Assembly (NCBI GenBank): GCA_031835245.2
Contig: JAVKOQ020000067.1
Location: 1 to 64,000 of the forward strand
Direction: 5' to 3'
DNA length: 64,000 nt
DNA from: Balamuthia mandrillaris
Lineage: Eukaryota
The notes under the pieces are model-generated. The model was not told the DNA's origin. It searched no databases and saw only the letters and a list, made by a program, of their open reading frames with translations. Shown here piece by piece: positions 13,291-63,462 of the stretch. The position numbers and the translations under genes are program-made. How positions within the stretch are numbered: the stretch's first letter is position 1; every line of letters begins with the position of its first letter.

Positions 13291-16195
13291 TCATTCTTCT
13301 TCTTCATCTAACTCATACTCTTCTGCATCTGTTTCCTCTTCTTCCATAGTAAAACTTGCATCATCCTCATCACTGTTCTCCGCCTCAGCCATTGCCTCCG
13401 CCTCGACTGCTGCCTCCGCCTCGATCGCTGCCTCTGCCTCTGCCTCGATCGCCGCCTCTGCCTCCGCCTTGACCGCTGCCTCCGCCTTGACCGCTGCCTC
13501 CGCCTCGACCGCTGCCTCCGCCTGACTCCCGCCTCACACTGGCTAAGTTTCCGCCTTCAATCCGCTGCCTCCGCGACCGCTTGCCTCCCGCTTTGACCGC
13601 TAAGCTCTCCGCCTTTCGACCGCTGCCTCCGCTCGACCACTGCCTCCGCTTTGACCGCTGCTCCGCTCGACCAAGCGCCTTCCGCGACGCTGCCTCCACC
13701 TCGACTGCTGCCTCCGCCTCGACCGCTGCCTCCGCCTCGACCGCTGCCTCCACCTCGACTGCTGCCTCCGCCTCGACTGCTGCCTCCGCCTCGACTGCTG
13801 CCTCCTCCTCAACTGCTGCTTTTATACAGTATTTCCTCCAAAGTTCTGGGGCTGTTTCCAACGTCTCTGTGCTCCAATTTTTTTTTTGAGCTTTTGTTGT
13901 TCGTTGTCTCTTCCTTGGTCTATGAGGAAGTGTTTGCTCTGCTGCATAGTATTCAGCACGAAATTCAGCTGTCAATTGTTGGTAAGTAGCATTTTTAGCC
14001 CCTGAACCAAGATGATATCCACTTGTTTTTTTCTTTTTGTTGAGGAAATGCTTATTTTCAATATCATAATTAGCAAGCTTTTCCAAGCATCCAAAGCGTT
14101 CAAGGAAAAAGCCAAAGTGGTATACAAAGATATGGATATAAGGAGTAACTTCTGGGTCTCGATAACGTTCAACAAAGGCCTTACCAAAAGGTCGAGCCTC
14201 CTCTAACCACTGTTGAGCTGTAATTTTGACCTGTTTTCTTTTGGTAAATATATCTTTCTTTCCTTTGCTCTCCTCTGCTCTGCTTTCCTCTTCTCTTTCT
14301 TCCCTCTCCTCCCCTCTCCTCTCCTCTTTCCTTTTCTTCACTTCTTACCTTTGGTTCCATTGTTAAAGCAGCAAGATGTGTAAAGAGATTCCAAATTAAA
14401 CGAGTGTTATTCACCTTGGTTTGCTTTCTTGCTTTGTCTGTTCCTTCTCTAATCACTGTTTCAAATGTTTTGAAAAACTCCTCACGTTTCTTTATAATAT
14501 GAAGATACTCTGCTCGATTAAACTTTGCCTTTTTTACCCGTTGAGCCATTGTGACAAGTTTTTTGCTCTTGTTTGGAAGTTTTAGCTTTAAACTGCAAAA
14601 TATAGTTTCCCATTGCATCTCAAGGTTTGTGTTTCGTCCTACATCTTCACTTAATAACTCAAGTAGTTTCCTCATAATAGCCATAAATGCATGTAAATTG
14701 CATGGCACTGTATGTTTGAGGTCAAAGTTGAGAAGGCGCTTTCCACTAATTCCATAATAAGTTCGTGCAAACTCTTTTTTTTGTGATATTGAGAGTTCTT
14801 CTGCTATATTTCCAAGTTCTTGCATCAACTCTTCATCACGAAAGGGCCAATTACTTATATCAAAGTTTGCTATTTCATCTTTTGTTACTAGGCACCATGG
14901 GCATTTAAACTTTGACTTTGGATGAAAGCAAGAATACATTCCAACAAACTCAACTAGTGCTTTGAGATCACAGACAAGCACAGGCTCTAGTTGGTACTCT
15001 TTTCCTCCTGCTGTTATTGTTGCTCCATTAATCAACTCATTAATTGTCTTTGTTGCTTCTTTTAACTCAGTTCTAAGCTCTTGTCTATTTTCTTCTCCTT
15101 CAAAGACAATATATTGATGTGCATTCTTGCCTGACTTCGTTATTTCAAGGGTATACTCTTCCAAAATAAAGCTAAAGGTACCAACTTCATGACAACGCTC
15201 TCTTCGATTTGTCATAATTGCACCATCCCATGCAAACTTCACTATTAACTTTTTGTTCACTTCACTTTTTGGAGGATTGTTCTCAAGAATCCAGCTCATA
15301 TATTTCAATAATGGAAATTCCCATCCATGTCCACCCACTGTAACCTGTGGCTCCATAATAGAGTTCACCACTGCTTTTTGTCGTTGGATATGATGCAATG
15401 AAGCTGAATCATCAAGTCTAAAAACAGACATAGTATAGTTCCAATGTTCATCTGTAATCAGGGAAGTGTCCTTATAAGCAAGAAGCACCTCTAGTGTTGG
15501 CTGTGGTAAGTATGCTTTTAATTCTTCCACATTTTCTTGCAAAAATCGAATAACAGAGGGATCTGCTTTTACTATCTCTGCCACAGTTGCACCAAAGCTT
15601 TGATAAGGAGCTAAGCAATGAAGAAGGGCCTTCGCTTTATCAACAAAGAAGCTTTTTTCTCTTTGATCTCTGTGAATAATTTCCTCCCAAGGTATTGTCT
15701 ATTGTTTGTGTTATACAAGTGAACAAAAACAAAATAACAAGGGGAAATGAACCTGTAAATGTGCGTTGAGTTCTTTTATATCCCCTTCTCTCTTTTTTAG
15801 TCTGTTTTGTGCTTCTTCTTTACTAACTGCTTCCAATCTTTCTTTATCTTTTTTAGCTTTGGCATTTGTTGCTATATCCACACAGCGTTGACAGTCATCA
15901 GTACAGTTTTGATGGTATGTATGAAGTTCATGATATACACATGCACTTTGGGAAGAGTATGAATTCTTACAACCATTGGTGTGCTCACATGCCCAATTAC
16001 CAACAGTTGCATTACCAGTTCTCTTTCCTTCCAACTTAGCACATATAGAACAGGTTTGTGGGTTACAGCTGTGCCCTTTTTTTTTTTCTCATGCTTTGTC
16101 CTACTACCACTAGTCTGATATTGTACTCGATCTGCAGAAGCAGTGAGATTACAACAACTCTCGTGGCGACAAGTGAACGTCCTTTCTTCCTCCAT
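13291..16195 (-). CDS. RAG1/Transib-like DDE transposase with N-terminal Cys/His zinc motifs (introns ~15701-15752 and ~14231-14348; frame breaks at ~16080 and ~13520-13690)
   Basis: Ordered motifs KFAWDGA (~15225), EGEE, LVCDLKAL (~14968), FKCPWC (~14895), PCNLH (~14695), TPYIHIFVYH (~14135), NYDIENKH (~14058). These parallel the RAG1 core motifs SCDG, GYDEK, CTLC, DALH, YFHKTLAH and SEGNES. Confidence 0.75.
13385..13815 (-). repeat. 18-bp coding minisatellite (EAAVEA-like units), degenerate in the middle
   Basis: Repeated GCCTCCGCCTCGACCGCT units on the + strand, in the transposase C-terminal tail. Confidence 0.85.
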
Positions 16196-35759: not shown

Positions 35760-36100
35760 ATGGAGCTTCGAGTTGGGGGAAAGTATCGATTGGAGCGAAA
35801 GATTGGGAGCGGCTCTTTCGGAGAGATCTATCGCGGCGTCAACGTGCAAACGGACGAAGAGGTAGCGGTTAAGCTGGTTCGTTGGCTCCTTCATTTGCAT
35901 ATATATATTTTTTTTTCTGTTCTGTTGCTGTTGTTGTTTGACCGTTCAGTTCAATCCCTCCATTTTTTTTTTCACCAGGAAAACGTGAAAAGCAAACATC
36001 TTCAACTCTACTACGAATCGCGTCTCTACAAGGTTCTTGGCGGCGCTGGTACTCTCTCTCTCTCTCTCTCCCTCTCTTTCACTCTCCCTTCTCCCTGTTG

Positions 36101-36132
<32 letters not shown>

Positions 36133-38248
36133 GCTCTCCCTCTCCCCCTCTCTCTGTCGTCTGTCTTTCTCTCCCTCTCTCCCTCTCTCCCTCTCTCTGT
36201 CTCTATCTCTCTGACTCTTTTCTCTCTCTCTCTCTCTCTCTATTCTTGGGCTCTTTCTCGTGTGTTATTTCTTTTCTTTTCTTTCTTATCCTTTTCGTTC
36301 CTTTTTACTCGATTTTAGTGGGTTTTCCGTATGTACGATGGTATGGAGTGGAAGGAGAGTACAATGTGATGGTGATGGACCTGTTGGGACCCAGTCTGGA
36401 GGACCTCTTTAACTTCTGCGATCGAAAGTTCTCTCTGAAAACTGTGCTTATGCTTGCTGATCAATTGGTTTCTATCTTCTCGTTCTCTCTCGCTCGCGCT
36501 CTTTCTCTCTCTCTCTCTCTCGTTTATTCTCCATACGTATACTTACTCTTTTACAACTCAACGAATCGGACTGCAACCAAAGCTGTTAAGGATAGAATAC
36601 TTTCATAGCAAAGGCTTTATTCATAGAGATATCAAACCTGACAACTTTTTGGTACTTTTCTTTCCTTTTCTTAAGCAGAAGAATAAGAAGGAGGAGAAGA
36701 AGAAGAACAACAAGAACAAGAAGCAACAAAAAGGTCACTTTCTTTGGTTTTTGTTAACCCTTTATTCGCTCTTTTTTAAAAAAAAGTTGGGTCGAGGCAA
36801 TAAGAGCAATGTGGTTTTCATTATTGATTTTGGATTGGCAAAGAAGTTCAGAGACTCGCGGACACTTGTACACATTCCCTATCGCGAACGTAAAGGGCTC
36901 ACCGGCACTGCCCGTTATGCAAGTATCAACACCCATCTGGGCATTGGTTAGTTCTTCATCCCTTTAAATGCTTCTTTGCTTCTTTCTTTGTTTTTTCTTT
37001 TTAGCTTTATATTTTTTCTTCCATCTTGATGAACTCGTATAATTCTTCATCGTTTTTTTAAATGAACTAATTTTTTCATTTTAACTTTTCGTTCTTATTC
37101 TACTACGCATTTAAAAGAACAAAGCAGGAGGGATGATTTAGAGGCAATAGGATATGTATTGCTTTATTTTTTGAGGGGCAATTTGCCGTGGCAAGGCCTT
37201 AAAGGGGCCAACAAAAAGGAGAAATATGAACGGATCAGCGAACGGAAGATACTTACTTCCGTGGAAGCTCTTTGCCGGGGTTGTCCTGGTTAGTTTCTGT
37301 TTCATTCTTTTGTTTTGTTTAAGTTGTGTCTTTCTTTTTTTTTTTCTTTCTTTTCTTTCTTTTCTTTCTTTCTTCTTTCATGTATTTAGCTCATTGTGAG
37401 GTTTGATGACTTGTAAAACTAACTGTGATATAGCTGAATTTGCGACATATTTGAACTATACTCGGTCGTTGCGTTTCGACGGCGAACCCAACTATGCCTA
37501 TCTGCGGAAGATCTTCAGAGAACTTTTTATACAACAAGGATATGAGTATGACAGCAACTATGATTGGGTGCGTGAGGAACGCAATTTACCTACCACCAAG
37601 CTGACGCCAGAAGTATGTTCTTTTCGTCTTCCACTTCCTATCTCCCTTATTCTTATTTCTTGTTTCCGACCTATTTCTTCCTTTTCGTTCTTCTTTCTAT
37701 TCTTTTTTAAAACCAAAAACTCACCAATTGAGTAAAGTTAGGAAGTAATCAGGCAACAAGAGGATCTCCTGAACCACGCGCACGAGCAGACTTTAAGTCC
37801 CAAAGAGGGAGAGGAGGCGCTAAGGCTAGAGCGGGAGGAGCAGTCGGAACTCGAAACAACGGGTCCACCACAAAAGTTATCAAAAATGGTAGCGGAGGAG
37901 ATGGAGAGAACATCGCCAGTACATCATCATCCCCAGCAACAACAACTTTAGCGCCAGGAGAAGGAAGCGGAAGAACGACAGCTTCTGTTGGATCTGGAGC
38001 GAAAAGCAGCAGAGACACTAAAGATGCAACGCGTTCTTCGTTCATCAAAATGTCCAATATGGGACGACCACAACCCCGCAGAGCGGAACAGGATGACGCC
38101 GCTGCCTCCAGACGCAAGCCCACTCGGATACTTAAACGTTCTTCTTCAAAGGTTTGGTCGTTCTCTGTCTCCTTTGTCTTTCTTTTCCTTTGAGCCTAAC
38201 ATTCGGTTCCTACTACAGAAAGAAGAAAAGCCTGCAGGAGGGAAATAG
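35760..38248 (+). CDS. CSNK1: Casein kinase I (delta/epsilon-like), multi-exon
   Basis: [86 protein letters not shown]. Confidence 0.96.
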
Positions 38249-39160: not shown

Positions 39161-41254
39161 ATGAAGCGCAATAGACAGGCATACATCCTCCTGGCCTTGC
39201 TTGCTTTCACGTTTCTTCTTTACAAATTTGTCTCTTCATCATCTACGCCTGCTCCCAAGCCATCGAGTTACTTGGAGCTGCAAGAAAACTATCCTGGGAG
39301 TTGTCACCTTGACGCCTTCATGAAGGTGGACAACGTCCACCCAGGCTATACCGCCAGCGGCTATGTTTATGCCAAGAAAGCTCAAAGAGCCCGTTTCCAG
39401 TGGAAAGTGTTCTCCGAGAAAACACGGACCTACTTTTTGAGGCTTCGCTACTCTGCTGGGCAACCCTTCAGCGTCTCTCTTCTGGTCAACTGGAGACCTA
39501 CCCGACAACTTCAAATGGAGGCCACAAGTTCTTCCTGGAAGTTCCTTTTCCTCTCTGCCACCTTACGCGAGGGCGTCAACAGCCTTGTCCTCCAAACCAA
39601 TCAAGACACCCAAAACGTTTCTACCCTTCTCGTGGACAGTCTGGAGTTATACAACGAGCACAACTTCCTTCTTCCGGTGGAGTGCCACAACAACCAACGG
39701 GTGGCGATGCTTCAACCCAACCCTCGATGCGTGGCGGGGGCAGTCTTTCGAGACGAGACGGTGGACTGCGGAGGGGCTCGTCTGGGGATCTCCTGCACGG
39801 GCGACCAAGAGGACCAACCCGCGGTCATCACCTTGCAGAACGCCTCCTTGAAGAACCTCCGCCTGGCAGCAGACGGAGGGGCGGACGGCATCCATTGCGA
39901 CAGCGGGGATTGCACCCTGGAGAACGTGGTGTGGGAGGACATCTGCGAGGACGCCGCCACGCAAGCGGCGGAAGGCGGGACCATGACCATCAAAGGAGGA
40001 TGGGCGTTCAACGGGAAAGGGGGGTGGGGAGACCGCCCGGACAAGATCTTCCAACACAACTCCAAGAACAGCAAGGTCATTGTGACGGGAGGCTTCACCG
40101 CCAAAGGACACAATGGCATCCTTTACATGTCCTGTGGGAACTGCGTGGACAACGGAGGGCCTCGCTTTTCACACTTGGAGGATGTGAGGGTGGAGGGAAA
40201 GCTTGGATATGTGGCCCTTGCAAACGGGAACTACGGAGACAAGGCCACCATTCGAAACATGGTCATGCAACAAGAGAATCACCGGGCTTGCTTTGAATAC
40301 TTTGGGGTGGACAAGACCCTGGTGGACGGCGAGATGAAGGGACAACGATGGAATACGGAGCTGTGCGATGTCTCGCCAGAGGACGTGAAGACGTTGGACA
40401 CCATTCATGTGGTGGTGGCAGTGAACAAGGAATACCAGGCGGGGTTGTTGGCATTGCTTCGCTCCATCGGGAAGAACACCCCTCACCCACAAGCCGTCAT
40501 GGTGCACGTCATCCTGTGCAACAAGAAGGACGGGGAAGGAGGGGAGGAGGCCCTTTGGGCTGTGGGTCAAGAGATTCTGTGCGAAGGATGTCCTCCCGTG
40601 GAGGTCACAGTGTTCCACTTGGAGAAGAGCATCAAGGAGAAGCTGAACAACAAGTACCGCGAGGAGCTGAACGAGGAGAGCAACTACGCTCGTCTGTTCT
40701 TGCACGTGTTGTTCCCTTCCTTGAAGAAAGTCATTTGGTTGGACAGCGACACCTTGGCCTTGGGAGACCTGCGTGAGCTCTGGCACACCTCGATGAAAGG
40801 GAAAGACACATCCTTGGCGGCCGTTCCTCAAGCAAACAAACCACTGAGAAGTGCAGTGAACAATGCTCGGGTGAAAGAGCTGTTCAAGAGTCGGTACGGA
40901 AAGAAACGGTACGATTCTGAGGAAGCAACGTACAATGCAGGGGTGTTCATGGCAGACCTGGAAAAGTGGCGGAGAAGGAAGGTGGAGGAGGAGTTCCTTT
41001 GGTGGATTGAGCAAAGGAACAAAGAGGAGGACCTCTGGATGTTTGCCACGCAACCTCTTCTCATCGTGGTGTTTCACGGCCAATGGCAACAGCTCGGGCA
41101 AGAATGGAACGTCATTGACCTGGGATGGAGGAACGATGTCTCGGAGGAGAGCATCCAGTCGGCAAAGGTGCTGCATTGGAATGGAGAGCAGAAACCCTGG
41201 CTGCCTTCTGCTTTTGAGGAGTACAAAAAGATATGGGATGAGTATTATGTGTAG
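39161..41254 (+). CDS. Copy 1: signal-anchor + CBM35/CBM6-like + PL3 pectate-lyase-like + GT8 glycosyltransferase fusion (697 aa, intronless)
   Basis: N-terminal TM YILLALLAFTFLLY. CBM-like HPGYTASGYV...LRLRYS...LREGVNSLVL. PL3 motifs GADGIHC..GDCTLENVVWEDICEDAAT, DKIFQHN, SCGNC, NGNYGDKATI. GT8 motifs NYARLFL, KKVIWLDSD, YNAGV, VLHWNGEQKPW. Confidence 0.88.
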   Translation: MKRNRQAYILLALLAFTFLLYKFVSSSSTPAPKPSSYLELQENYPGSCHLDAFMKVDNVHPGYTASGYVYAKKAQRARFQWKVFSEKTRTYFLRLRYSAGQPFSVSLLVNWRPTRQLQMEATSSSWKFLFLSATLREGVNSLVLQTNQDTQNVSTLLVDSLELYNEHNFLLPVECHNNQRVAMLQPNPRCVAGAVFRDETVDCGGARLGISCTGDQEDQPAVITLQNASLKNLRLAADGGADGIHCDSGDCTLENVVWEDICEDAATQAAEGGTMTIKGGWAFNGKGGWGDRPDKIFQHNSKNSKVIVTGGFTAKGHNGILYMSCGNCVDNGGPRFSHLEDVRVEGKLGYVALANGNYGDKATIRNMVMQQENHRACFEYFGVDKTLVDGEMKGQRWNTELCDVSPEDVKTLDTIHVVVAVNKEYQAGLLALLRSIGKNTPHPQAVMVHVILCNKKDGEGGEEALWAVGQEILCEGCPPVEVTVFHLEKSIKEKLNNKYREELNEESNYARLFLHVLFPSLKKVIWLDSDTLALGDLRELWHTSMKGKDTSLAAVPQANKPLRSAVNNARVKELFKSRYGKKRYDSEEATYNAGVFMADLEKWRRRKVEEEFLWWIEQRNKEEDLWMFATQPLLIVVFHGQWQQLGQEWNVIDLGWRNDVSEESIQSAKVLHWNGEQKPWLPSAFEEYKKIWDEYYV

Positions 41255-41674
41255 ATGACCAACAACAATGTTTTAAAAGGTGTATATGTATGTACATTGG
41301 AAACACTTCAAAGGTTTGCCCTCCTTGTCGAGAGAGTTTGTTCAGCTCACCTTCTGCATCCTCTGCTACAACGAACTGTCCTCCTTGCTCACCACCCTCA
41401 GCGATTAGTAACCCTTCTCCCGTCCTTGCAAACGGTGACAAGTTTCTTCCGTCAACCCATTCAGCGGCTAGAAGCACTTCTGCAACCAAGGGGAAGAGCA
41501 TCTGGATAGGAGGGATAAGTGGCGGAGGAGGAGGAAGGGGCAAAAGCAGAAGGGGGAAACAGGGCCAGTGGTGAGGAAGTATTTCGACGAGGGTGGGTGT
41601 GGTGGGAGTTGGTTTGTGGGTTGGCCAGTTTTGCGGCAACAATGCTTCCGTCTTGTATTGGGAATCAAAAAAAA

Positions 41675-41746
41675 TGGTTCCGGCGAGTGTTGATCTCGCG
41701 ACCTTGAGCGTGTTAGGCTCACGTGCTACCGTTGCACCACGGAACC
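41675..41746 (-). tRNA. tRNA-Val (anticodon AAC)
   Basis: Reverse complement folds as a cloverleaf: acceptor GGTTCCG/CGGAACC-A, anticodon arm TGAGC-CTAACAC-GCTCA, T arm GCGAG-ATCAACA-CTCGC. An oligo-T terminator follows. Identical to the copy at 53756. Confidence 0.85.
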
Positions 41747-42287
41747 GCTTCTTGCCTTCTGCTTGCGGAAGGTTAGTTCCACGAACGGAGCTCGAGCCCT
41801 GTGCCCTCTCTGTGCTAGTTAGTGTTTGAGGGTGAGTACGGAGTTGTGGTGTTGTGGTAAAATTGCGACAGTGGATTGGAGGAACTCCTTCGGAGTTCTG
41901 GTCGGAATTTTTGAGGAGAGGTGGTTTCTTGGGCGCTCTAAGAAGTTTATTCTTAGTGCGCGTTTTTCTGAAGTTTAGACGGACGTAGTTGGCGTTCGGC
42001 TCAACTTGTGGGTGAGGTTCTTCCCGCCCGCCCACCCTCTCTGCCCATCTCTGGAGATGCGTAGGTTCATTGAGGTTAGGCCAATGTGTATAGGCCTGTA
42101 GGTGCCTTTATTGAGCGTAATAAAGGCTCCTGAGGAGGGAGCGCGCTTCTATCAGCTTCTCTGCATGGTGAGAGGGCCAGGGCTCGGCGTAGTGGGGAGT
42201 GGAACGTGGATAAATTGCCTTTCCACTTGTGTCTCAGTTCTTTGATCTGACGATGATTAGTCAGGAGCCTTTGGCTGTAAAGGCCAT

Positions 42288-44528
42288 TCATTGTGCATTC
42301 TCTAATGCGATTGTATTATTTTGCACATAATACTCATCCCATATCTTCTTGTACTCCTCAAAAGCAGAAGGCAGCCAGGGCTTCCGCTTGCCATTCCAAT
42401 GCAGCACCTTTGCCGACTGGATGCTCTCCTCCGAGACATCGTTCCTCCATCCCAGGTCAACGACGTTCCATTCTTGCCCGAGCTGTTGCCATTGGCCGTG
42501 AAACACCACGATGAGAAGAGGTTGCGTGGCAAACATCCAGAGGTCCTCCTCTTTGTTCCTTTGCTCAATCCACCAAAGGAACTCCTCCTCCACCTTCCTT
42601 CTCCGCCACTTTTCCAGGTCTGCCATGAACACCCCTGCATTGTACGTTGCTTCCTCGGGGTCGTACCGTTTCTTTCCGTACCGACTCTTGAACAGCTCTT
42701 TCACCCGAGCATTGTTCACCGCACTTCTCAGTGGTTTGCCTGCTTGAGGAACAGCCGCCAAGGATGTGTCTTTCCCTTTCATCGAGGTGTGCCAGAGCTC
42801 GCGCAGGTCTCCCAAGACCAAGGTGTCGCTGTCCAACCAAATGACTTTCTTCAAGGAAGGGAACAACACATGCAAGAACAGACGAGCGTAGTTGCTCTCC
42901 TCGTTCAGCTCCTCGCGGTACTTGTTGTTCAGCTTCTCCTTGATGCTCTTCTCCAAGTGGAACACTGTGACCTCTACCGGAGGACATCCTTCGCACAGAA
43001 TCTCTTGACCCACAGCCCAAAGGGCCTCCTCCCCTCCTTCCCCGTCCTTCTTGTTGCACAGGATGACGTGCACCATGACGGTTTGTGGGTGAGGGGTGTT
43101 CTTCCCGATGGAGCGAAGCAATGCCAACAACCCCGCCTGGTATTCCTTGTTCACCGCCACCACCACATGAATGGTGTCCAACGTCTTCACGTCCTCTGGC
43201 GAGACATCGCACACCTTCGTATTCCATCGTTGTCCCTCATTCTTCCCGTCCACCAGGGTCTTGTCCACCCCAAAGTATTCAAAGCAAGCCGGATGATCCT
43301 CTTGTTGCATGACCATGTTTCGAATGGTGGCCTTGTCTCCGTAGTTCCCATTTACACCTGCCACCCGCTGGACCATCCCCTCCACCCTCACATCCTCCAA
43401 GTGTGCAAAGCGAGGTCCTCCGTTGTCCACGCAGTTCCCACAGGACCTGTAAAGAGCACCATTGTGTCCTTTGGCGGTGAAGCCTCCCGTCACAATGACC
43501 TTGCTGTTCTTGGAGTTGTGTTGGAAGATCTTGTCCGGGCGGTCTCCCCACCCCCCTTTCCCGTTGAACGCCCATCCTCCTTTGATGGTCATGGTCCCGC
43601 CTTCCGCCGCTTGCGTGGCGGCGTCCTCGCAGATGTCCTCCCACACCACGTTCTCCAGGGTGCAATCCCCGCTGTCGCAATGGATGCCGTCCGCCCCTCC
43701 GTCTGCTGCCAGGCGGAGGTTCTTCAAGGAGGCGTTCTGCAGGGTGATGACCGCGGGTTGGTCCTCTTGGTCGCCCGTGCAGGAGAGCCCCACACGAGCC
43801 CCTCCGCAGTCCACCGCCTCGTCTCGAAAGACTGCCCCCGCCACGCATCGAGGGTTGGGTTGAAGCATCGCCACCCGTTGGTTGTTGTGGCACTCCACCG
43901 GAAGAACAAGTGGAAGAGGAAGAGGAAGAGGTGATTGGTTGTTGGGGTGGTTGTGGGGGTGGATGGTGAGGCTGTCGATGAGGAAGCCAGAAAGGTCCTG
44001 TGGGGTCTTGTTCTCGCTGGAGGCGTGGAGGACGATGCTGTTGACGCCCGTTTGCAAAGTTGCGGGGAGCAAGACGGTCCGCCAGGAGGAGTGCTGCGTG
44101 GCTTCCATGTGCAGCTGAGCAACCGCTCTCCAGTTGAGGAGAAGGGAAAAAGAAAGGGCTTGGGAAAGAGAGGAAGAATAGCGGAACTCCAAAGTGTGGC
44201 TTTGCCTTTCAGCGGCGTGAACTTTCCATTGGAAACGGGCCTGATGAGGGTGCTCACTGTGAACATAGCCGCTGGCGGTGTAGCCTGCAAGGACGTTGTC
44301 CACCTTCATGAAGGGGTCAAGGTGACAGCTGCCAGGATAGTTTTCTTGCAGCTCCAACCTTGCCGCATTGCCGTTTGAGAGGGAAGAAGAAGAAGAAGGA
44401 GGAGAAAAAGAAGAGGGAGAGGTGAAGAAGGGCCCGTTCCAAATAAAGAGCTGGAGCAGCAAGGCAAGGCACGCCAAGAGGGTGTAAAACAAACGTCGGT
44501 TGCTGCCCGGCCGCAACATGGCAAACAT
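42288..44528 (-). CDS. Copy 2: signal-anchor + CBM35-like + PL3-like + GT8 fusion (746 aa, intronless)
   Basis: Same architecture as copy 1, with near-identical PL3 and GT8 regions; PL3 motif reads GALYRSCGNC. Confidence 0.88.
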   Translation of the reverse strand: MFAMLRPGSNRRLFYTLLACLALLLQLFIWNGPFFTSPSSFSPPSSSSSLSNGNAARLELQENYPGSCHLDPFMKVDNVLAGYTASGYVHSEHPHQARFQWKVHAAERQSHTLEFRYSSSLSQALSFSLLLNWRAVAQLHMEATQHSSWRTVLLPATLQTGVNSIVLHASSENKTPQDLSGFLIDSLTIHPHNHPNNQSPLPLPLPLVLPVECHNNQRVAMLQPNPRCVAGAVFRDEAVDCGGARVGLSCTGDQEDQPAVITLQNASLKNLRLAADGGADGIHCDSGDCTLENVVWEDICEDAATQAAEGGTMTIKGGWAFNGKGGWGDRPDKIFQHNSKNSKVIVTGGFTAKGHNGALYRSCGNCVDNGGPRFAHLEDVRVEGMVQRVAGVNGNYGDKATIRNMVMQQEDHPACFEYFGVDKTLVDGKNEGQRWNTKVCDVSPEDVKTLDTIHVVVAVNKEYQAGLLALLRSIGKNTPHPQTVMVHVILCNKKDGEGGEEALWAVGQEILCEGCPPVEVTVFHLEKSIKEKLNNKYREELNEESNYARLFLHVLFPSLKKVIWLDSDTLVLGDLRELWHTSMKGKDTSLAAVPQAGKPLRSAVNNARVKELFKSRYGKKRYDPEEATYNAGVFMADLEKWRRRKVEEEFLWWIEQRNKEEDLWMFATQPLLIVVFHGQWQQLGQEWNVVDLGWRNDVSEESIQSAKVLHWNGKRKPWLPSAFEEYKKIWDEYYVQNNTIALENAQ

Positions 44529-45149
44529 CTTTCCGTTCTTTCTTACCCCACCTACTTTGTTCTTGCGTTACGCCCCCTTCCTCCCTCTGTTGCCTGACGG
44601 AGTAAAATGTCCGGGGATGCCAAATGTGCTGGCCGGCGGTAGTTGGGAGAAAAATTTGACGGCAGCTCTGGACATATTTTGCCCTCGACCCTCCTCGCAC
44701 CGATGATCACATATGATGATCTGATCACGTTATTGGTGCGCGAAGAAGGGCAAAAAATGTCCAGAATTTATACGCATCGACGGCCCAGCTGACACAAAAG
44801 CAAGCGACTCCTTGCAAGGGGGGGACAAGACATAAGAGGTTCCCTTGTTTGCCTGCCCTCGGCGCTGAGCACATCGGACGCAGCTGAGCCCTTTTGCTTC
44901 GCGTGGTTGGCGGCTCCTAGGAGAGTAAATAAACGGTGTTATTGCATCGCACAAAAAAAGAGAAGAAAAGAAAATAAGAAGAGCAAAGAGAGGAGAGAGG
45001 AGCGGAGACGGAGGAAACAGAGGCGACAGGAGGAGGTTGGTCCAAATACAGAAGAAAAAGAAGATGGATAGAGGATCGAAATGATGAAGAGTCCGGCTGG
45101 GAACAGTTTTATTGTCGTTCCTTGTGAACGGTGCACTTTCTTGGCCGAT

Positions 45150-46390
45150 TCAGGCAAGAGAAGATGCTTTGGCGTTTCTGGAGGTGGCTCTCTTGGAGCG
45201 AGCATTGCCTCCACCGGGCCTTCCTTTGACTTTCTTCCCCTCTCCCAAAAAGTCGATTTGTTCTTGTGATATCTGCGTAGTTCCATCATCAGAAAGAAGA
45301 AAAAGGAGAGAGAGAAGCACAAAGAATACATACACCCCAAGCTTGGCTGGAAATGATCTCTGTGACATCGTTCAGCACGTCTCCTTGAATATCAATTGTA
45401 CCATCCTCCGCATTGACACTGGCTCCACAACCTAACTTCTTTTTGAACAGGGAACTGGCGTCCTTCAGGTTAACACCTGTAGGTTGTAATAAAAAGAGAG
45501 TGAGTCAAGGTACAAAAGGCTAGAGAGAGAGAGAGAGAGAGAATGCGAGAACAGGACGCCCAAAAGAACGAGAAGAGAGGACAGAGAAGGGCGGGGAGAG
45601 AACTAACCAAATGTTCCTAACCCTGTGATCGTGGTAACAAACTTGCGTTTGCCTCTTTGAGACCGGAAAATGCCAACCATGGCATCTTCTGGCGGTCCCT
45701 ATTGCGGTTGAGCAAAAAAGAAAGAGGATGAGCGATCAAAATGACCAGCGTTGCGCTGCCCAACAGGGTTGAAGTCATAACTAACCTGGTCTTTCTTCTT
45801 TGCCTTTGCTGTTCCTTTGCCACCTTCAGGTTTGTGATTTAGAAAATAGAGAGAGAGAGAGAGAGGAGAGAGGAGAGAGAGAGAGAGCAGATCGGAGACA
45901 GAACGAGACAGAACAAGAGCAGAGCAACAAGTGAGACAAACGCATAAACAAAGAAGCAAGGAGCTTTTCCGTACCTCGTTTCTGTCGCTTCTTTTCGCCT
46001 TCATCCTCCCCTTCCGCTCCCTCTTTGCCCTCCTCTGTGCTTTCCCCCTTCTCGCCTCCCTCTTTCTCCTCCAAGATCTCTGGACAGTGCTCCCTCAACC
46101 ACGGCTTGCACGCTTCAAAGTCTGGTCCGTACTCACAGAACTCTGGAGGCAAACCACAAACTGTTGGCCAGCAGCACCCAAAAATAATAATCAATCAATC
46201 AATCAATCATTGGATTAGCTTGTCCCGAGTGGAAGCTTAGAATAGAATAAGAAAACACACACACACCTCCACAGTAAATAACGGTCTTGGCAACAAGTCC
46301 AGTTGGTGCAGCCTCACCGGAGGACGTTTCCTCGGCAGAAGTAGCAGCTGCAGCAGGGGTGGCCTCGTGAGCCGTCGCGGTGTCTTCCAT
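45150..46390 (-). CDS. DENR: Density-regulated protein (DENR/Tma22, SUI1 domain), multi-exon
   Basis: VIYCG|VCGLPPEFCEYGP..EACKPWL, RGKRKFVTTITGL.TFGV.LKDAS..FKKKLGCGASV...IDIQGDV. Confidence 0.9.
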
Positions 46391-47699
46391 CGCTCTCTGT
46401 TCGCGTAGCAGCTGGGTTGCTTGTCGACAAATTTCCAGAAAAATTTTTTACCGTTTTTTTCATTTATTCAATTTTTTGTTGTTATTTTTCGAATATTTGT
46501 CTGCAAAAAATGACAAGAGAGAGTAAAATTCAAACCACCTATCGAAAATCAAACAAACACACAAACGAAAAAGGAACGCGAAAGGCGAGCAGAGCGCTGT
46601 AGTGGGCTGACATCCAGGAATTGTTGGCGATCGCTGGGCTGACCTCAACAACACTAACCACAACGCCAAACGCCAACGGCAAGCTATAACAACAACGGCG
46701 GCCAACAACAAACAATCTGTTGGGAGGTGGAAACAATCACCATGGCAATGACAACAACATCGACGAGGATGTTTTTGAAAACCTTCTTCGACGATGTTGG
46801 ACGCTCACGAAGCTGCCTGACCCAGAACTTTGGGGTGGAGAGCATCGCTGCCATGTCATTGCTGAGGCCAAGGCCGCAAAGGAAGGATCGACCAGTGGGA
46901 TCGACTTGGCCCGAGTGGTCACCGACGTGTCCCATTGCCTCTTGCTTGTTTCCCCCCGCAACACATGGCCAAAGACGAGAACTTCTTCACCCACATCCCA
47001 ACTCTCTGGAACACAAGGAGATTCCAAGGTCGATAGGGTGGTTCACGAGAAGCTCTCCGTGCCATTGCTTTAACAGAACACACGAAAGAAAGCATTCTTT
47101 TTTTTTTTTTTGTACAAAGAGGCTTGGTTGGTTTTGACTGGAGCAGCAACTGCTTGTGAGGCCATTGGATGAGCGTGCTGGTTGAAGTGGAATAGCGGGA
47201 GAAGAGGGCCACGGGATGTCCAGAGAAGGAGGTGTTCGAGAAGGAATGCCCTTTTCAATGGAAACAGCCAGCCGGGAAAACAATACATCATGCGAGGTCC
47301 TCGCATTCGACGATAGAACGCAGCGACGTACGAAGCTGGACTTCGGGTGTGTGTGGTAAAAGTTGTGACTGTCTGGGTGCTCGTTCCGGAGATGAAAACA
47401 AATGAAAGCAAAACTAGTTTCTTGCAAGAACAGCAAATAGAAAAGAAGAAAAAAACACAGAAACACAACAAAGAAGCAGCGAATGACGGGAAAAGGTCTT
47501 TGTTGGTTGTTTTACGCCGCGAAAGTGCTGTGCTATCGGAAGGGCGTCTGAGAGGGAGCGTTTGGACGACGAACAAACGCTCCCTCTCTTGCAGTTCAGC
47601 GGTGGGTCTTTCTCCGTTGAGCGAGCGATGAGGACGTGCTGGGGAGTGAAGGTAATTGGCTGTGCCGCTTCCTTTCTTGCACCGTTCATTGTTCATACT

Positions 47700-49914
47700 C
47701 TAATGCGATATTGTATTCTGCACGTGGTACTCATCCCATATCTTCTTGTACTCCTCAAAAGCAGAAGGCAGCCAGGGCTTCCGCTCTCCATTCCAATGCA
47801 ACACCTTTGCTGACTGGATGCTCTCCTCCGAGACATCGTTCCTCCATCCCAGGTCAATGACGTTCCATTCTTGCCCGAGCTGTTGCCATTGGCCGTGAAA
47901 CACCACGATGAGAAGAGGTTGCGTGGCAAACATCCAGAGGTCCTCCTCTTTGTTCCTTTGCTCAATCCACCAAAGGAACTCCTCCTCCACCTTCCTTCTC
48001 CGCCACTTTTCCAGGTCTGCCATGAACACCCCTGCATTGTACGTTGCTTCCTCAGAATCGTACCGTTTCTTTCCGTACCGACTCTTGAACAGCTCTTTCA
48101 CCCGAGCATTGTTCACCGCACTTCTCAGTGGTTTGTTTGCTTGAGGAACGGCCGCCAGGGATGTGTCTTTCCCTTTCATCGAGGTGTGCCAGAGCTCACG
48201 CAGGTCTCCCAAGGCCAAGGTGTCGCTGTCCAACCAAATGACTTTCTTCAAGGAAGGGAACAACACATGCAAGAACAGACGAGCGTAGTTGCTCTCCTCA
48301 TTCAGCTCCTCGCGGTACTTGTTGTTCAGCTTCTCCTTGATGCTCTTCTCCAAGTGGAACACTGTGACCTCCACGGGAGTCGCACAGAATCTCTTGGCCC
48401 ACAGCCCAAAGGGCATCCTCCCCTCCTTCCTCATCCTTCTTGTTGCACAGGATGACGTGCACCATGACGGCTTGTGGGTGAGGGGTGTTCTTCCCGATGG
48501 AGCGAAGCAATGCCAACAACCCCGCCTGGTATTCCTTGTTCACTGCCACCACCACATGAATGGTGTCCAACGTCTTCACGTCCTCTGGCGAGACATCGCA
48601 CAGCTCCGTATTCCATCGTTGTCCCTTCATCTCGCCGTCCACCAGGGTCTTGTCCACCCCAAAGTATTCAAAGCAAGCTGGATGATTCTCTTGTTGCATG
48701 ACCATGTTTCGAATGGTGGCCTTGTCTCCGTAGTTCCCGTTTGCAAGGGCCACATATCCAAGCTTTCCCTCCACCCTCACATCCTCCAAGTGTGCAAAGC
48801 GAGGCCCTCCGTTGTCCACGCAGTTCCCACAGGACATGTAAAGGATGCCATTGTGTCCTTTGGCGGTGAAGCCTCCCGTCACAATGACCTTGCTGTTCTT
48901 GGAGTTGTGTTGGAAGATCTTGTCCGGGCGATCTCCCCACCCCCCTTTCCCGTTGAACGCCCATCCTCCTTTGATGGTCATGGTCCCGCCTTCCGCCGCT
49001 TGCGTGGCGGCATCCTCGCAGATGTCCTCCCACACCACGTTCTCCAGGGTGCAATCCCCGCTGTCGCAATGGATGCCGTCCGCCCCTCCGTCTGCTGCCA
49101 GGCGGAGGTTCTTCAAGGAGGCGTTCTGCAGGGTGATGACCGCGGGTTGGTCCTCTTGGTCGCCCGTGCAGGAGAGCCCCACACGAGCCCCTCCGCAGTC
49201 CACCGCCTCGTCTCGAAAGACTGCCCCCGCCACGCATCGAGGGTTGGGTTGAAGCATCGCCACCCGTTGGTTGTTGTGGCACTCCACCGGAAGAACAAGT
49301 GGAAGCGGAAGAGGAAGAGGTGGTTGATTGTGGGGGTGGATGGTGAGGCTGTCGATGAGGAAGCCAGAAAGGTCCTGTGGGGTCTTGTTCTCGCTGGAGG
49401 CGTGGAGGACGATGCTGTTGACGCCCGTTTGCAAAGTTGCGGAGAGCAAGACGGTCCGCCAGGAGGAGTGCTGCGTGGCTTCCATGTGCAGCTGAGCAAC
49501 CGCTCTCCAGTTGAGGAGAAGGGAAAAAGAAAGGGCTTGGGAAAGAGAGGAAGAATAGCGGAACTCCAAAGTGTGGCTTTGCCTTTCAGCGGCGTGAACT
49601 TTCCATTGGAAACGGGCCTGATGAGGGTGCTCACTGTGAACATAGCCGCTGGCGGTGTAGCCTGCAAGGACGTTGTCCACCTTCATGAAGGGGTCAAGGT
49701 GACAGCTGCCAGGATAGTTTTCTTGCAGCTCCAACCTTGCCGCATTGCCGTTTGAGAGGGAAGAAGAAGAAGAAGGAGAAAAAGAAGAAGAAGAAGAAGA
49801 GGGAGAGGTGAAGAAGGTCCCGTTCCAAATAAAGAGCTGGAGCAGCAAGGCAAGGCACGCCAAGAGGGTGTAAAACAAACGTCGGTTGCTGCCCGGCCGC
49901 AACATGGCAAACAT
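47700..49914 (-). pseudogene. Copy 3 of the CBM35-PL3-GT8 fusion, frameshifted at ~48378
   Basis: An 8-nt deletion (AGGATGTC, in the ILCEGCPPVEV codons of copy 1) splits the gene into ORFs 48298-49914 and 47700-48434. A hAT element lies 24 bp upstream of the ATG. Confidence 0.8.
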
Positions 49915-50709: not shown

Positions 50710-53484
50710 TTAACTGCTGCTGCTGTTGTTGTTGGGTACAACATTAGTGGCAGTGGCAGCAGCACCAGTATTGGTGGCTGCACAGTGGCTACGCTCCAAC
50801 TCGATGAATGCATGAACATCTGCTAACAAGAAAGGACGAGTGGTACTGATCTTCACTGAAAATGTCCAACGAGGATCTTCCCGTTTGGAGCGGAGGAACT
50901 TCTTCAGGTATGCAACAGTAAGCTTGGATCCAGAAGGTAGAAAGTTAATGTGATGTAAATAGTCCACCACATCTTTCTCTGCTTCTTGAGCTTTCTGCCA
51001 TTAGAAGCAATCCATTGCAAAGCTGAACAAGAAGGTTGCATCCCATTATTATTGTCCTTCCACAGGCGATTCAGCAGGCTGAAAAGTCTTTCACCTGAGC
51101 GATTGGTTCCACGGATATATTTCGCTTGTGGTGGTGGTGACAGTGACGGTGACAGCTGCGGTGACGGTGACGGTGACGGTGACGGTGACGGTGACGGTGA
51201 CGGACGGTGACGGGACGGACGGTGACGGCGGTATGACGGTGATGGTGACGGACGGTGACGGTGACGGTGACGGTGATGGTGATGGTGACGGTGATGGTGA
51301 CGGTCGACGGTGACGGTGACGGTGACGGTGACGGTGACGGTGACGGTGACGGTGACGGTGACGGTGATGGTGACGGTGACGGCAATGGTGACAGTGACAG
51401 TGGCAGCGGTAGTGGCAGTGGCGAAGTTGGCAACTGCTTGTTGAGCTGTTGTTGTGATGGCTGTTGTTGCTTGTATAACTGCTGCTGAGAAGGTATGGTG
51501 TTGTCCTCTTCTTCTCCTTTCAATGCTTCTTTTTCTTCCAATGACAACAAGGATTGGTTGTATTTGGAAAGAAGCATATGAGCACAGTCACACCAATCTT
51601 GAGCCAAGTAAAACGCCAGGACGTCGTGTGGCATTCCACTACTACCCATTCCATTTGTTTTGCTGTTGCTGCTCACATAGGGCTCTATGAGTGACCACAG
51701 AACATTCAAGTTAGTAGCCAACTGTTTTGGACTTTGTTTGAAGCGCACAATATCTTGAAAGAAAGCTTGAAGGTGGGCAACATAAGTTTCCCTTTTCTTT
51801 ACCTGATTACCAACTGCCATTAATTGCTTCAGCCACCTCAAGCCCCACGTCATGACATGAAGAACTCTGGTAACAAGGGGGTTTGAAAGTACTTGGAACA
51901 AAAGCTTGGCCGTTTCTGCGTCTGTATCTTGGCTATGTAGCTTAAAGAACTCCAACAAAGCATCATGATGTTCCAAAACTACACCTGCCATTCGCTCAAA
52001 AGAAACATACCTTGTCTCCGTTACCCGTGGAATAGATATGTGAGGATCCTTGTTGGAAGCAGAGGAGCCATCAGTGGTTTGTTGTCGTTGTTTTCTCTCT
52101 TGAACCAGTCCTTGAAAACTGCTTTTCCATGGAAACATGCAAAGGCGTTTAGATAACACTTTTAAAAAAGTACTAACCGAGTTCATATGATTTGGCAGAT
52201 GACATTGACAGCTGGAGCATGGTACCATTGGCATGCCATTACCGTTGTTGATGACAGTCTGACTGTTACAAACAGATAGTCCTGAGCATTTCGTCCAAAG
52301 AGCCAGTCGCTGTTCCATCTTTTCCAAGAAACGCTGAGAGATCAAGGAGGCTATGTGGTCATTGTAGCCTTTGATTTCCAATTCTGTTGGAGGGTAAGAA
52401 CCAGCCCCATGTTCCTTCTGCCACGCTTCCACTCGCTTTTTCCGCAACAACACACCAAGGTGTTAGAAAGGGCGAATAACATGAACAGATGGGGCCAAAA
52501 CGTATTATTCAAGAGGGAACAAAGGAACAAAGAGTGTCAGGAGAGAAAGGTGTGGTGTGAACTAAACAAAACTAACTAACTAAAAGAAAGAGAGAAGGAA
52601 GCAACGGAATAAAAGGAAGAAGCCTAGCGATGTGGCAACAGGCGATTGGTCCACGTCAAGGATGTCGACAGGAAGAAAAGGAAAGGAAAGGGGCAACAGA
52701 ACTAATATGTTGAGAGTAATTCTCAACAAAGGCCACCGATAATACCCGTGTTGGTGGAGGTCAAGTCGAACACTATCTGTTGGAAATGATAGAGCTTGGT
52801 GATGTTAGCTTCACTAATACCTTGTGCTCTTTGCTTCGCCTGAGTGTCCGATAGACACTCCTCAATAAGGTCGCAAAGCTGTTGTGCAGTGTGACCAAGA
52901 ACTTCTTTTACCACCACGGGTCAACTAACTTCGGTGGCAACAGGCTCTACTGCTGTCTTGGCCCGCTGGGTGGTGGTGGAAACTGGTTCCTCACAGAATC
53001 CTCCGAACTTCACCTCCACAAAGCTTCTACCATCCACTTTGGAAGACTCGTCCACACCGACAAACAGCTCCTTCAACTTCAGAAGTTCAGAAGCCATCGC
53101 ATAATCCACCGCCAGGCCTGCTTCCACGACTGCTCGGTTGACCGAGTCTTTGGAAAAAGCCTTCTTTGGAGGAGGCAACCTGAACTGGATAACTTTGGGA
53201 ATGGCAGAAGCCGAAACCAAGTTCCGACGGAGCTGTGCGCATGCGATCCGTTCCTGTAGGGTTAGATAGCGCGGGTTTTTCTCTCCAGACAACGCCTTTT
53301 CTCTCTCTCTTTCTCGTCTCTTTTCTTCTATTTTTTTTTGTTTTTGTTTTGCAACGTACTTATTTTTTCTTGCCTTGTACTCTGGCTGATTGCTAGCACA
53401 ACTTCGGCAATGTTTTTTCGTAGCCAACAGCTTACCACACTTGGCACAAGGCTGTCGCGGCTTTCTTTGTCTTTTGTTTCTCAT
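50710..53484 (-). pseudogene. hAT-type transposase, interrupted
   Basis: N-terminal CAKC..HCRSC zinc motif, FVGVDESS, VFDLTSTNTG, CQCHLPN, TETRYVS and TNRSGERLFS (hAT D, D, CxxH, TRW.S and ERxFS motifs). In-frame TGA stops at 52921 and 52723, and a frame shift across a hexamer repeat. Confidence 0.75.
51128..51420. repeat. (GGTGAC)n hexamer repeat inside the hAT transposase
   Basis: Directly visible; encodes (PS)n on the minus strand. Confidence 0.95.
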
Positions 53485-53755
53485 TGTCGTTGCTTTTCTT
53501 TTCTTTTCTTTTCTGTAAAATGATTTGTTGTTCGTTATCGTACTGAGAACCTGAAGAATTTCTGCACTAGACGTTAGATCTTTTTCGTCGACTTTCCTTT
53601 TCTGTACCCGATCACCTCAGATCAAGATTGAATTTCATCAGCCAATCAGCGTCATTGCTCCGCTTTGCCCCCCCCTACTTTGGTCTTGCGCTAAAACAGA
53701 TTTCCCCATGGACGTCCTCGTCTCTCGCCCTATGGCAGCTCGAAATTTTCAGCGA

Positions 53756-62128: not shown

Positions 62129-63462
62129 ATGGAGAAAAAGAGGCTTACCAACAGCAAGAGGGTAGCAAAAAACAAAAACTGGCAGTGTGTAAGGCACGTA
62201 CTCTTCCTTTTTTTTTTTCAAGTGACCTGACCTGACCATCTTTTCATTCACTTGGGAAGGACTCGGCTTGTTTGGTGGAAGAACGCATCCCCGACGAAGT
62301 GCTGTGCCACATATTGGGCATGTTACCTGAATCCATGGTTGCGATTGCGGCCAGGACCTGCCGCCGCTGGTTTGCTTGCACTTTGCCATCCCTCAGGCTG
62401 AAACTCTCTGTTCGGGTGATGTGCAGCAGGTTGGAGCTGTTGCAATGGGCTGTGAGGAATGGATATACCATGGACAAGGCAACCTGTTACTCGTCAGCAG
62501 CACAGGGTCAGTTTGAAGTGCTGAAATGGGCACTTGAGAACGGGTGTCCTTGGGACAAGTTCGCTTTCTGGTGGGCAGCACACAGGGGGTACCTAGACAT
62601 GGTGAAGTGGTTATTTGCCAACCATTATACTGAGAAGAAGGACATCGAAGTGCACAGCACACACTTGGAAGTGCTTGACTGGGCTCATGAACATGGCTTC
62701 CTGTTGAGCCCTGCCTCCTTCTATTCAGCAGCGGAAGGGGGATTGATGGAGGTGATGCTATGGGGATTGGACCATGGCCATGTTTGGGACCCGGAAACGA
62801 GCGCCCACGCGGCAAGTGGTGGCCAGCTGGAGATGTTGAAGTGGGCCAGAAAGAAAGGATATCCATGGGATGAGGAAAGTTGCTGGGCAGCTGCAACGTG
62901 CGGCCATTTAGAGGTATTGAAATGGTTACGGGAGAACGGCTGCCCTTGGGATAAGAATACTTGCGAGGGAGCGGCTGAGAGTGGGCATTTGGGAGTGTTA
63001 AAATGGGCTCGAGAAAATGGGTGCCCTTGGGACCTTTACACTGGCAACTCAGCAGCCGCGATGGGCCATCTGGAAGTGCTTAAGTGGGCTCATGAACACG
63101 GATGCCCTTGGAATGAGAGGACGTGTGCTGTTGCAGCCTCTCACGGCCACTTGGGATTGCTACAATGGGCAAGAGAGAATGGTTGCCCTTGGGACGAACA
63201 GACGTGCAGCTTAACCGCCCGCTCTGGTCGGCTAAAGGTATTGCAATGGGCGAGAGAGAATGGCTGTCCATGGGACGAGAGCACTTGCGCACAAGCAGCA
63301 GCAACTGGTCAACTGGTCGTGCTGCAATGGGCAAGAGAGAATGGCTGTCCTTGGGATGAACGCACATGCGCTGCGGCAGCCAAGAACGGACATCTGAAAG
63401 TGTTAGAGTGGGCTCGTGAACATGGCTGTCCTGTGCCTGATGATCTTTCTCTTTCAACGTAA
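62129..63462 (+). CDS. F-box + ankyrin-like repeat protein (GCPWD-type repeats)
   Basis: Predicted exon 62129-62188 (GTAAG donor) splices in frame to 62260. F-box IPDEVLCHILGML...ARTCRRW, then many AA..GHLEVLKWARENGCPWDE.TC repeats. Confidence 0.85.

Follow-up and report, generated by a model that had tools for sequence, protein, structure and literature searches.

What is a protein for that joins a polysaccharide-lyase fold to a glycosyltransferase? The question is raised by a 64,000-nucleotide stretch of Balamuthia mandrillaris DNA (GenBank assembly GCA_031835245.2, contig JAVKOQ020000067.1, positions 1 to 64,000; hereafter 'the window'), in which three coding regions, each uninterrupted and all homologous to one another, occupy 39161-41254 (+), 44528-42288 (-) and 49914-47700 (-). 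Their architecture, a signal anchor followed by a CBM35-fold module, a PL3 beta-helix and a GT8 domain, is real. The parts belong to known families; the joining of PL3 and GT8 in one chain appears to be new and was confined to Balamuthia in our searches. The answer we tentatively favour, at somewhat less than even confidence, is a glycosyltransferase of the Golgi type, one that would transfer uronic acid (most probably galacturonate, with UDP-galacturonate (UDP-GalA) as donor) and whose altered lyase groove would hold the product and cut it slowly or never.

Architecture and copies of the fusion

Across the copies, both enzymatic domains pass their Pfam cut-offs: PF03211 (PL3) scores 143-155 bits against a gathering score of 25 (E 2e-45 to 8e-42; 7e-42 in copy 1 and 2e-45 in copy 2) and PF01501 (GT8) scores 142-146 bits against 24.3 (E 1.5e-42 to 6e-39; 2e-41 in copy 1 and 1.5e-42 in copy 2). 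The CBM does not reach its Pfam cut-off (E 0.06-0.19 for copies 2 and 3, with no entry for copy 1) and is identified by its matches to the solved CBM35s 2W3J, 2W46 and 2W87 (E 2e-7 to 4e-6). The three domain calls of a first-pass annotation made from the sequence alone are thus upheld, and all motifs that it quoted are found in the sequence. Its type II signal anchor also agrees with prediction: each copy has one hydrophobic stretch near its N terminus, which begins at residue 7 or 13 and reaches a Kyte-Doolittle mean of 1.93-1.96 over its best 19 residues. Such a stretch would fit an anchor with a putative lumenal catalytic part, or possibly a cleaved signal peptide. An AlphaFold2 model of copy 2 (26-row alignment; mean predicted local distance difference test score (pLDDT) 80.3, predicted template modelling score (pTM) 0.71) orders the chain as a helix (residues 11-30), a Ser-rich stem without order, a CBM made largely of strands, a beta-helix-like run of strands and an alpha/beta glycosyltransferase domain; residues 232-449 are predicted to be strand-rich, as for a PL3 beta-helix. 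The features are as follows.

39161..41254, +: copy 1 (g1), 697 amino acids, whole, with anchor, CBM35 fold, PL3 and GT8; contained in NCBI KAL6067722.1 (P0002)
39179..39235, +: g1 predicted type II signal anchor, residues 7-25; hydropathy 1.96, the sole such segment; putative topology
39272..39655, +: g1 CBM35-fold module; D2 His (H60) kept, remaining uronate-site residues gone; putative mapping of regions A-E onto the motifs
39716..40393, +: g1 PL3 (PelI/Pel3-type) beta-helix; D242, E263, D264 and base K295 kept; I320 at the Pel3 K252 position, M323 at the R255 position
40394..41251, +: g1 GT8 domain; R511, DxD 528-530, NAGV 592, Q631-P, H672, KPW 678
42288..44528, -: copy 2 (g2), 746 amino acids, whole; CBM about 44357-43960, PL3 43859-43182, GT8 43181-42324
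within 43859-43182, -: g2 groove variant; base K333, A358, R361, with R388 one rung on
48298..49914, -: copy 3 (g3) upstream open reading frame (ORF), 538 amino acids; anchor, CBM, PL3 and GT8 start, then a frameshifted tail; equal to P0019 in length and sequence
47700..48434, -: copy 3 GT8 core, in a frame different from that of the upstream ORF; PF01501 E 5.6e-39
48379..48380, -: copy 3 gap site, with 8 bases fewer than copies 1 and 2 by copy comparison

Copies 1 and 2 are whole, each an uninterrupted, four-part ORF that is comparatively GC-rich (0.545-0.559 for these two, against mostly 0.37-0.52 in 1-kb bins of the rest of the window), in line with the first-pass annotation, which had called all three intronless. 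Copy 3 departs from that description in this assembly. Because it lacks 8 bases between 48379 and 48380, its ORF stops at 538 amino acids, before the GT8 core, which lies out of frame; the longer form is seen at this gap in both of two RNA reads and in the sole covering DNA contig (run X2).

Homology among the copies is restricted to the coding regions and ceases at their ends. Copy 3 is 97-100% like copy 2 in its 5' part, about 99% like copy 1 and just 83% like copy 2 in the groove region, and again copy 1-like in its 3' part, a mosaic that fits gene conversion. Five further related NCBI proteins (P0001, P0021, P0020, P0003 and P0023) lie on four other contigs, and haplotypes may account for some of them. 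P0003, a deep paralogue at 62-64% identity, has kept the complete architecture, the frame and all key motifs. P0023 was considered as a stand-alone Balamuthia GT8 and set aside, as it starts inside PL3 and is a fragment of a P0003-type fusion. Contamination was likewise rejected: the genes sit among intron-rich eukaryotic genes, carry an in-frame GT8 fusion and are present in runs of five studies. Two NCBI models add extras absent from the other paralogues, a spliced 3' tail on copy 2 in P0018 (945 amino acids) and a 5' extension on copy 1 in P0002 (721 amino acids); both are probably gene-prediction artefacts.

Three RNA runs contributed 25, 30 and 6 reads out of 12.9 million each, covering 14, 19 and 8 of 30 bins, all inside the coding span; no read was at least 99% alike, about half fit partly, and reads may derive from any copy. 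In run X15, mean depth was 2.86 in the bin with the PL3/GT8 junction (48570), and with 3 reads at 48544 and 3 at 48584 on either side, reads cross the junction. The transcript is therefore continuous across the two domains, at low depth, and not split between them. No splice joints were listed in the RNA reads, at a depth too low (3-read threshold) to exclude an intron.

The fusion could be a chance event, amplified and homogenised by gene conversion and having little function. The frameshift in copy 3, the end of similarity at the coding ends and the low RNA depth would all fit, although that depth also depends on how much of each RNA run derives from Balamuthia. We consider this reading very improbable, since P0003 has diverged to its present identity with frame and key motifs kept and the stretch recurs in the runs of the five studies.

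We searched for the same combination elsewhere. A full-length search (17 matches among 7992 candidates of 410-1306 amino acids) found PL3 with GT8 in Balamuthia only. A phmmer search of 1.84 billion representatives was followed through its best 150 of 5401 matches (to 95.8 bits), and of the 183 sequences then gathered the 10 with both domains were all from Balamuthia. A GT8 profile search of proteins of 691-2000 amino acids gave 3 matches, all from Balamuthia, which the search tool rated weak evidence. No description of a PL3-GT8 fusion or of a Balamuthia pectate lyase was found in the literature, in a coverage that omits most subscription papers. The earlier statement that no described protein joins these domains accordingly stands, outside Balamuthia, for the protein searches run and the literature searched.

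Origin and binding sites of the CBM35-PL3 unit

The CBM35-PL3 tandem is common to the lipoprotein-like proteins P0004-P0008, a Cellvibrio polysaccharolyticus protein (P0178, WP_193907352.1) and a Cellvibrionaceae locus (L001). These relatives also carry the ENYPG and GY.ASGY motifs and a linker cysteine, and their identity to g2 is 31-42% in the CBM and 54-62% in PL3. In a 60-row FastTree (71 rows less 11 that were too short or duplicated another), Balamuthia PL3 is nested among the tandem proteins (Shimodaira-Hasegawa-like support (SH) 92) as sister to the Cellvibrionaceae pair (85), and the same sister group is recovered at 96/90 in a 24-row IQ-TREE analysis. The simplest reading is that CBM35 and PL3 were gained as one unit from a gammaproteobacterium, the direction of transfer being suggested by the nesting in bacterial proteins and the patchy eukaryotic distribution. 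The bacterial origin proposed earlier for this part is supported by both the tandem matches and the tree. An alternative grouping of PL3 with P0053, P0132 and P0159, intended as a set of eukaryote type, was rejected by the approximately unbiased (AU) test (p 0.008), which is weaker evidence, as P0159 looks actinobacterial. At L001:24-6128, the CBM35-PL3 gene follows TonB-dependent-receptor-like and carboxylesterase-like ORFs (named by eye) on the same strand, as in a polysaccharide-use cluster.

The lyase groove of the Balamuthia proteins is altered at its substrate-binding residues. PMC7949064 names K227 as the base of Pel3 and K252 and R255 as its substrate-binding residues; assignments of the PL3 Ca ligands and base follow the corresponding passages of PMC7949064 and PMC10992409. 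The base Lys and three Ca ligands (Asp, Glu, Asp) are kept in all seven Balamuthia rows, which are close paralogues or alleles and not independent. At the K252 position these rows have Ile (five) or Ala (two), so Lys is absent throughout; the other homologues have Lys (51 of 53) or Arg (2 of 53). At the R255 position Balamuthia has Arg (three), Met (three) or Lys (one), and 51 of 53 other homologues have Arg. This is a PL3 domain with one or two carboxylate-binding residues lost and its Ca ligands and base kept.

The change is concentrated in the groove. Between g1 and g2, residues differ at 3 of 144 codons before the groove, 9 of 40 groove codons and 7 of 285 GT8 codons. On the next rung (adjacency being predicted from the beta-helix register) copy 2 has Arg and copy 1 has Tyr, and the g1 groove is hydrophobic (I320, M323, Y350, L353). 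Among deep paralogues, PL3 (69-71% identity) is at least as conserved as GT8 (65-66%) and yet has an altered groove, which points to a domain that is maintained but retuned; the CBM is less conserved than either (52-59%). Two groove variants coexist and persist despite gene conversion. Two other PL3s, P0084 and P0150, combine Arg/Met at the K252/R255 positions with Tyr/Arg one rung further on, an arrangement in which the rungs seem to have exchanged the basic residue.

The first-pass annotation had proposed an enzyme that both builds and trims a uronate glycan. Its trimming half is weakened by a groove without the substrate-binding Lys in all seven Balamuthia rows and without the Arg in four of them. 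In a true build-and-trim enzyme, GT8 would polymerise a uronate chain, and PL3, active but re-specialised, would cap the chains and release them, each groove variant being suited to a differently modified substrate. The retained base and Ca ligands would be expected of such an enzyme, as would the survival of groove variants through gene conversion and the compensating next-rung basic residues of g2, P0001 and P0003, for which the swap in P0084 and P0150 is a parallel. Set against these, the K252 position is lost throughout, and g1, g3 and P0020 have neither basic residue and gain none on the next rung. The Golgi, moreover, is mildly acidic. By contrast, the PL3 optima listed in the available part of PMC10992409 are pH 8.0-9.5 with Ca. 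On balance we judge active trimming unlikely.

The CBM site has changed as well. Relative to the residues of uronate-binding CBM35s as outlined in part of PMC9843283, alignment indicates that most of the uronate signature is gone from the Balamuthia module, namely the Trp of region A, the Asn of region B, that of region C and both the Asn and the Arg of region E; the D2 His is present in g1 and P0020 only, two of the six rows aligned. Several of the closest bacterial CBM relatives are likewise without most uronate-binding residues. The CBM35 uronate site thus appears largely lost in the fusion, which weakens the uronate-binding role suggested for it earlier.

These sites also bear on whether the protein could serve at the cell surface to bind or degrade pectin of plant or algal food or surfaces, with GT8 incidental. 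The donor proteins are secreted-type bacterial pectate lyases, and NCBI names the matching Balamuthia proteins pectate lyase. It is the lyase groove and the CBM site, however, that have degraded, with the GT8 site left intact, and no free-standing CBM-PL3 was found in Balamuthia in the full-length and phmmer protein searches except the frameshifted copy 3. Such a role seems quite improbable.

GT8 placement and the sugar donor

All GT8 motifs (DxD, the R of N.AR, NAGV, the Q/D region and H..G..KPW) are intact, in a domain that is whole in copies 1 and 2 only. Its nearest relatives are the anchored, stand-alone P0036 (41% identity) and P0102, with which it groups at SH 95-98, suggesting that a gene of this kind received the bacterial unit in its stem. 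In the best trees (115 rows, 10 of 125 having been dropped beforehand; the 42- and 24-row trees are subsets of our choosing), the Balamuthia group joins a broad GT8 set with a W..G(T/S)QP motif, whose named members come from a choanoflagellate, an ichthyosporean and further eukaryotic sets. The GAUT-like and GLT8D-like rows lie apart from it; support for the deep branches is weak (SH 80-91).

The first-pass annotation had pointed to the GAUT, GATL and GLT8D proteins of this family, and membership in any of them is not borne out. GT8 lies outside the GAUT clade in the three best trees, although the AU test does not reject a GAUT grouping (p-AU 0.113). No match to the GAUT_1 domain (PF25557) was found in the Balamuthia fusions, though P0125 and P0157 have one, and Balamuthia has ATQP where GAUT-like rows have GTLP. 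The best trees also place it outside the GLT8D clade, a label that derives from motifs and one sponge protein; none of the rows among the matches was identifiable as GATL. The closest solved GT8s are WbbM and LgtC, and the GT8 clusters from ESM Atlas, at 0.95-0.97, were all bacterial, which is uninformative on subfamily.

Hints to the donor come from fusions in related GT8s. P0091, from the choanoflagellate Salpingoeca helianthica, joins GT8 to an epimerase at its N terminus, in which the NAD-binding, SSSSVYG, YxxxK and RFFTVYGP..RPDM motifs are all intact; this epimerase matches 6ZLD/6ZLL/6ZLJ at E 7e-49, and its best UDP-glucose 4-epimerase match is at 3.5e-30. The available text of PMC11519531 identifies 6ZLD/6ZLL/6ZLJ as UDP-glucuronate 4-epimerase, the maker of UDP-GalA, and P0091-type fusions could possibly be one-chain enzymes of UDP-GalA supply and transfer in animal relatives. 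Degenerate N-terminal epimerase-like domains occur on the same broad GT8 group in P0049/P0177 (Amoebidium parasiticum), P0086 and P0050, with EGF-like modules in several. In P0044 (712 amino acids), an anchored GT8 is followed by a PL1-like beta-helix (PF00544 E 2e-6; PL1 matches in the Protein Data Bank (PDB) from E 4e-7). The catalytic-motif arginines appear absent from this fold, at what we take to be the PL1 catalytic-motif position. This single sequence appears to be an independent pairing of GT8 and lyase in the opposite domain order. Together, the epimerase-like and PL1-like fusions would point to a galacturonate donor. The uronate donor assumed earlier is thereby kept as an indirect suggestion, through GT8s that are themselves distant.

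GT8 might instead work like GLT8D1 or LgtC and transfer neutral sugar, whether Gal, Glc or Xyl, onto a glycolipid or glycoprotein, with CBM-PL3 as a lectin-like stalk that selects the acceptor. The family is polyspecific in the account available from PMC3797821, GLT8D1 uses UDP-Gal according to the available part of PMC10709319, and the cyst-wall analysis given in part of PMC4326988 lists trace galactose. The proximity of WbbM and LgtC and the hydrophobic groove of g1 lean the same way. Against it, the retained acidic Ca site suits an anionic ligand, and of the related GT8s one carries a UDP-GlcA epimerase-like domain and another a PL1-like fold. We regard a neutral donor as doubtful.

Proposed function and known systems

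In the uronate-transferase reading that we favour, a bacterial CBM35-PL3 pair would have been transferred and then inserted into the stem of an anchored GT8. The intact GT8 would act as a metal-dependent retaining transferase facing the lumen, with UDP-GalA as the donor suggested by fusions in related GT8s. The PL3 groove, its specificity changed, would bind the chain through Ca and serve as a clamp or length gauge, and CBM35 would now be mostly a spacer. If beta-elimination did on rare occasions cut the chain, the part on the anchor side would end in a 4,5-unsaturated residue without the 4-OH on which alpha-1,4 extension depends; PL3 cleavage yields a 4,5-unsaturated non-reducing end in the description available from PMC10992409. 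As such an end without 4-OH could not be extended, even slow cutting would set chain length.

Several observations weigh against this reading. On the lyase side, the base Lys is retained in every copy, the basic residues gained on the next rung in g2, P0001 and P0003 could restore activity, and the seven rows that lack the K252 Lys are close paralogues or alleles and do not count as independent. K252T/S/R and R255Q/C arose repeatedly across PL3 groups and were read as substrate adaptation in the part of PMC7949064 available. On the donor side, the GT8s that supply the hints are distant (about 30% identity) and tied to the Balamuthia clade by weak branches (SH 80-89). Epimerase-like domains occur in 5 of 125 GT8 proteins, with intact motifs in 1 of 125, and the PL1-like fusion occurs in 1 of 125; one metagenome scan for P0044 relatives found 0 of 41 candidates. 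The top PDB match of the P0091 epimerase is 5U4Q (E 2.6e-69), labelled dTDP-glucose 4,6-dehydratase, which we presume to be a member of the group of UDP-GlcA epimerases. UDP-Gal is the donor of GLT8D1, a related protein, as noted above. Finally, the composition reported for the Balamuthia cyst wall is 79.1 mol% glucose, 20.9 mannose and trace galactose, with no uronic acid among the sugars listed in the available part of PMC4326988; these sugars also weaken the cyst-wall setting offered in the first-pass annotation.

The uronate-transferase reading has a more far-reaching form, which is speculative and unlikely. Balamuthia would make a homogalacturonan-like polymer through a non-GAUT GT8 lineage shared with other protists, by a self-terminating polymerase in which the captured lyase cuts the fresh chain, the unextendable 4,5-unsaturated end stops growth and the groove variants set length or chemistry. 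According to PMC3797821, homogalacturonan GT8s have been regarded as defining the charophytes and land plants, so that a protist version would be of note. The epimerase-like and second-lyase fusions in protist GT8s make galacturonan in non-plant protists a testable question.

In either form, a bacterial degradative module would have been recruited into a eukaryotic biosynthetic enzyme, its active site visibly remodelled. The fusion is also a lead to an unknown glycan in a poorly understood and usually fatal human pathogen, and it is an enzyme architecture without a counterpart found in the host.

Other genes of the window include a casein kinase 1-like gene with many introns, a short way upstream of copy 1 (35760-37735, +), and a SET-domain ORF (5315-6556, +), neither linked to the fusion. 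An uninterrupted ORF at 62236-63462 (+) encodes an F-box-like domain and many ankyrin repeats, in a style that we take to be giant-virus-like. The long ORFs at 13385-15698 (-) and 50904-53616 (-) gave no significant Pfam match (three scanned) and look by eye like transposon remnants; the second group adjoins copy 3, just upstream.

Among known systems, the closest to the PL3 domain are PelI of Dickeya (3B4N) and Pel3 of Pectobacterium (4U49/4U4B), which match it at E 9e-68 and share its beta-helix motifs, Ca ligands and base Lys. Balamuthia differs from them in the I/A at the K252 position and M/R/K at the R255 position, in having no Fn3 domain, in the setting of PL3 between a CBM35 fold and GT8, and in scoring below the NCBIfam PelI cut-off (259-272 against 620 bits). 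The Cellvibrionaceae CBM35/6-PL3 proteins have the same tandem and linker motifs as Balamuthia; K252 and R255 are conserved in them, and without a GT8 domain their chain ends directly after PL3. To our knowledge, the harpin HrpW lacks lyase activity. Its PL3 domain, described in PMC7949064 as binding pectin, shares the fold and, like Balamuthia, has a non-Lys residue (Thr) at the K252 position; it falls in another PL3 cluster in the tree of that paper, and HrpW is a type III secretion protein.

The Balamuthia CBM35 shares its strand pattern with Pel-CBM35 (2W3J) and Xyl-CBM35 (2W46/2W87), although uronate-binding CBM35s carry the region A, B, C and E residues that it is without. Plant GAUT homogalacturonan synthases, of which GAUT1 makes homogalacturonan in the part of PMC3797821 available, have in common with Balamuthia the GT8 domain, the anchor and the DxD, NAGV-like and H..G..KPW motifs. 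GAUTs have GAUT_1, GTLP and no lyase domain, whereas Balamuthia has no GAUT_1, carries ATQP and has a lyase fold. Animal GLT8D1/2 are anchored GT8s with a similar core and, in GLT8D-like rows, a Q-P-like motif, in a clade separate from the Balamuthia GT8 in the best trees.

Bacterial coupling of polysaccharide synthesis to an enzyme that cuts the same polymer is known from the alginate (AlgL), cellulose (BcsZ) and Pel (PelA) systems. In those systems the cutter is a separate bacterial protein, whereas in Balamuthia it is part of one eukaryotic chain and its groove is degraded.

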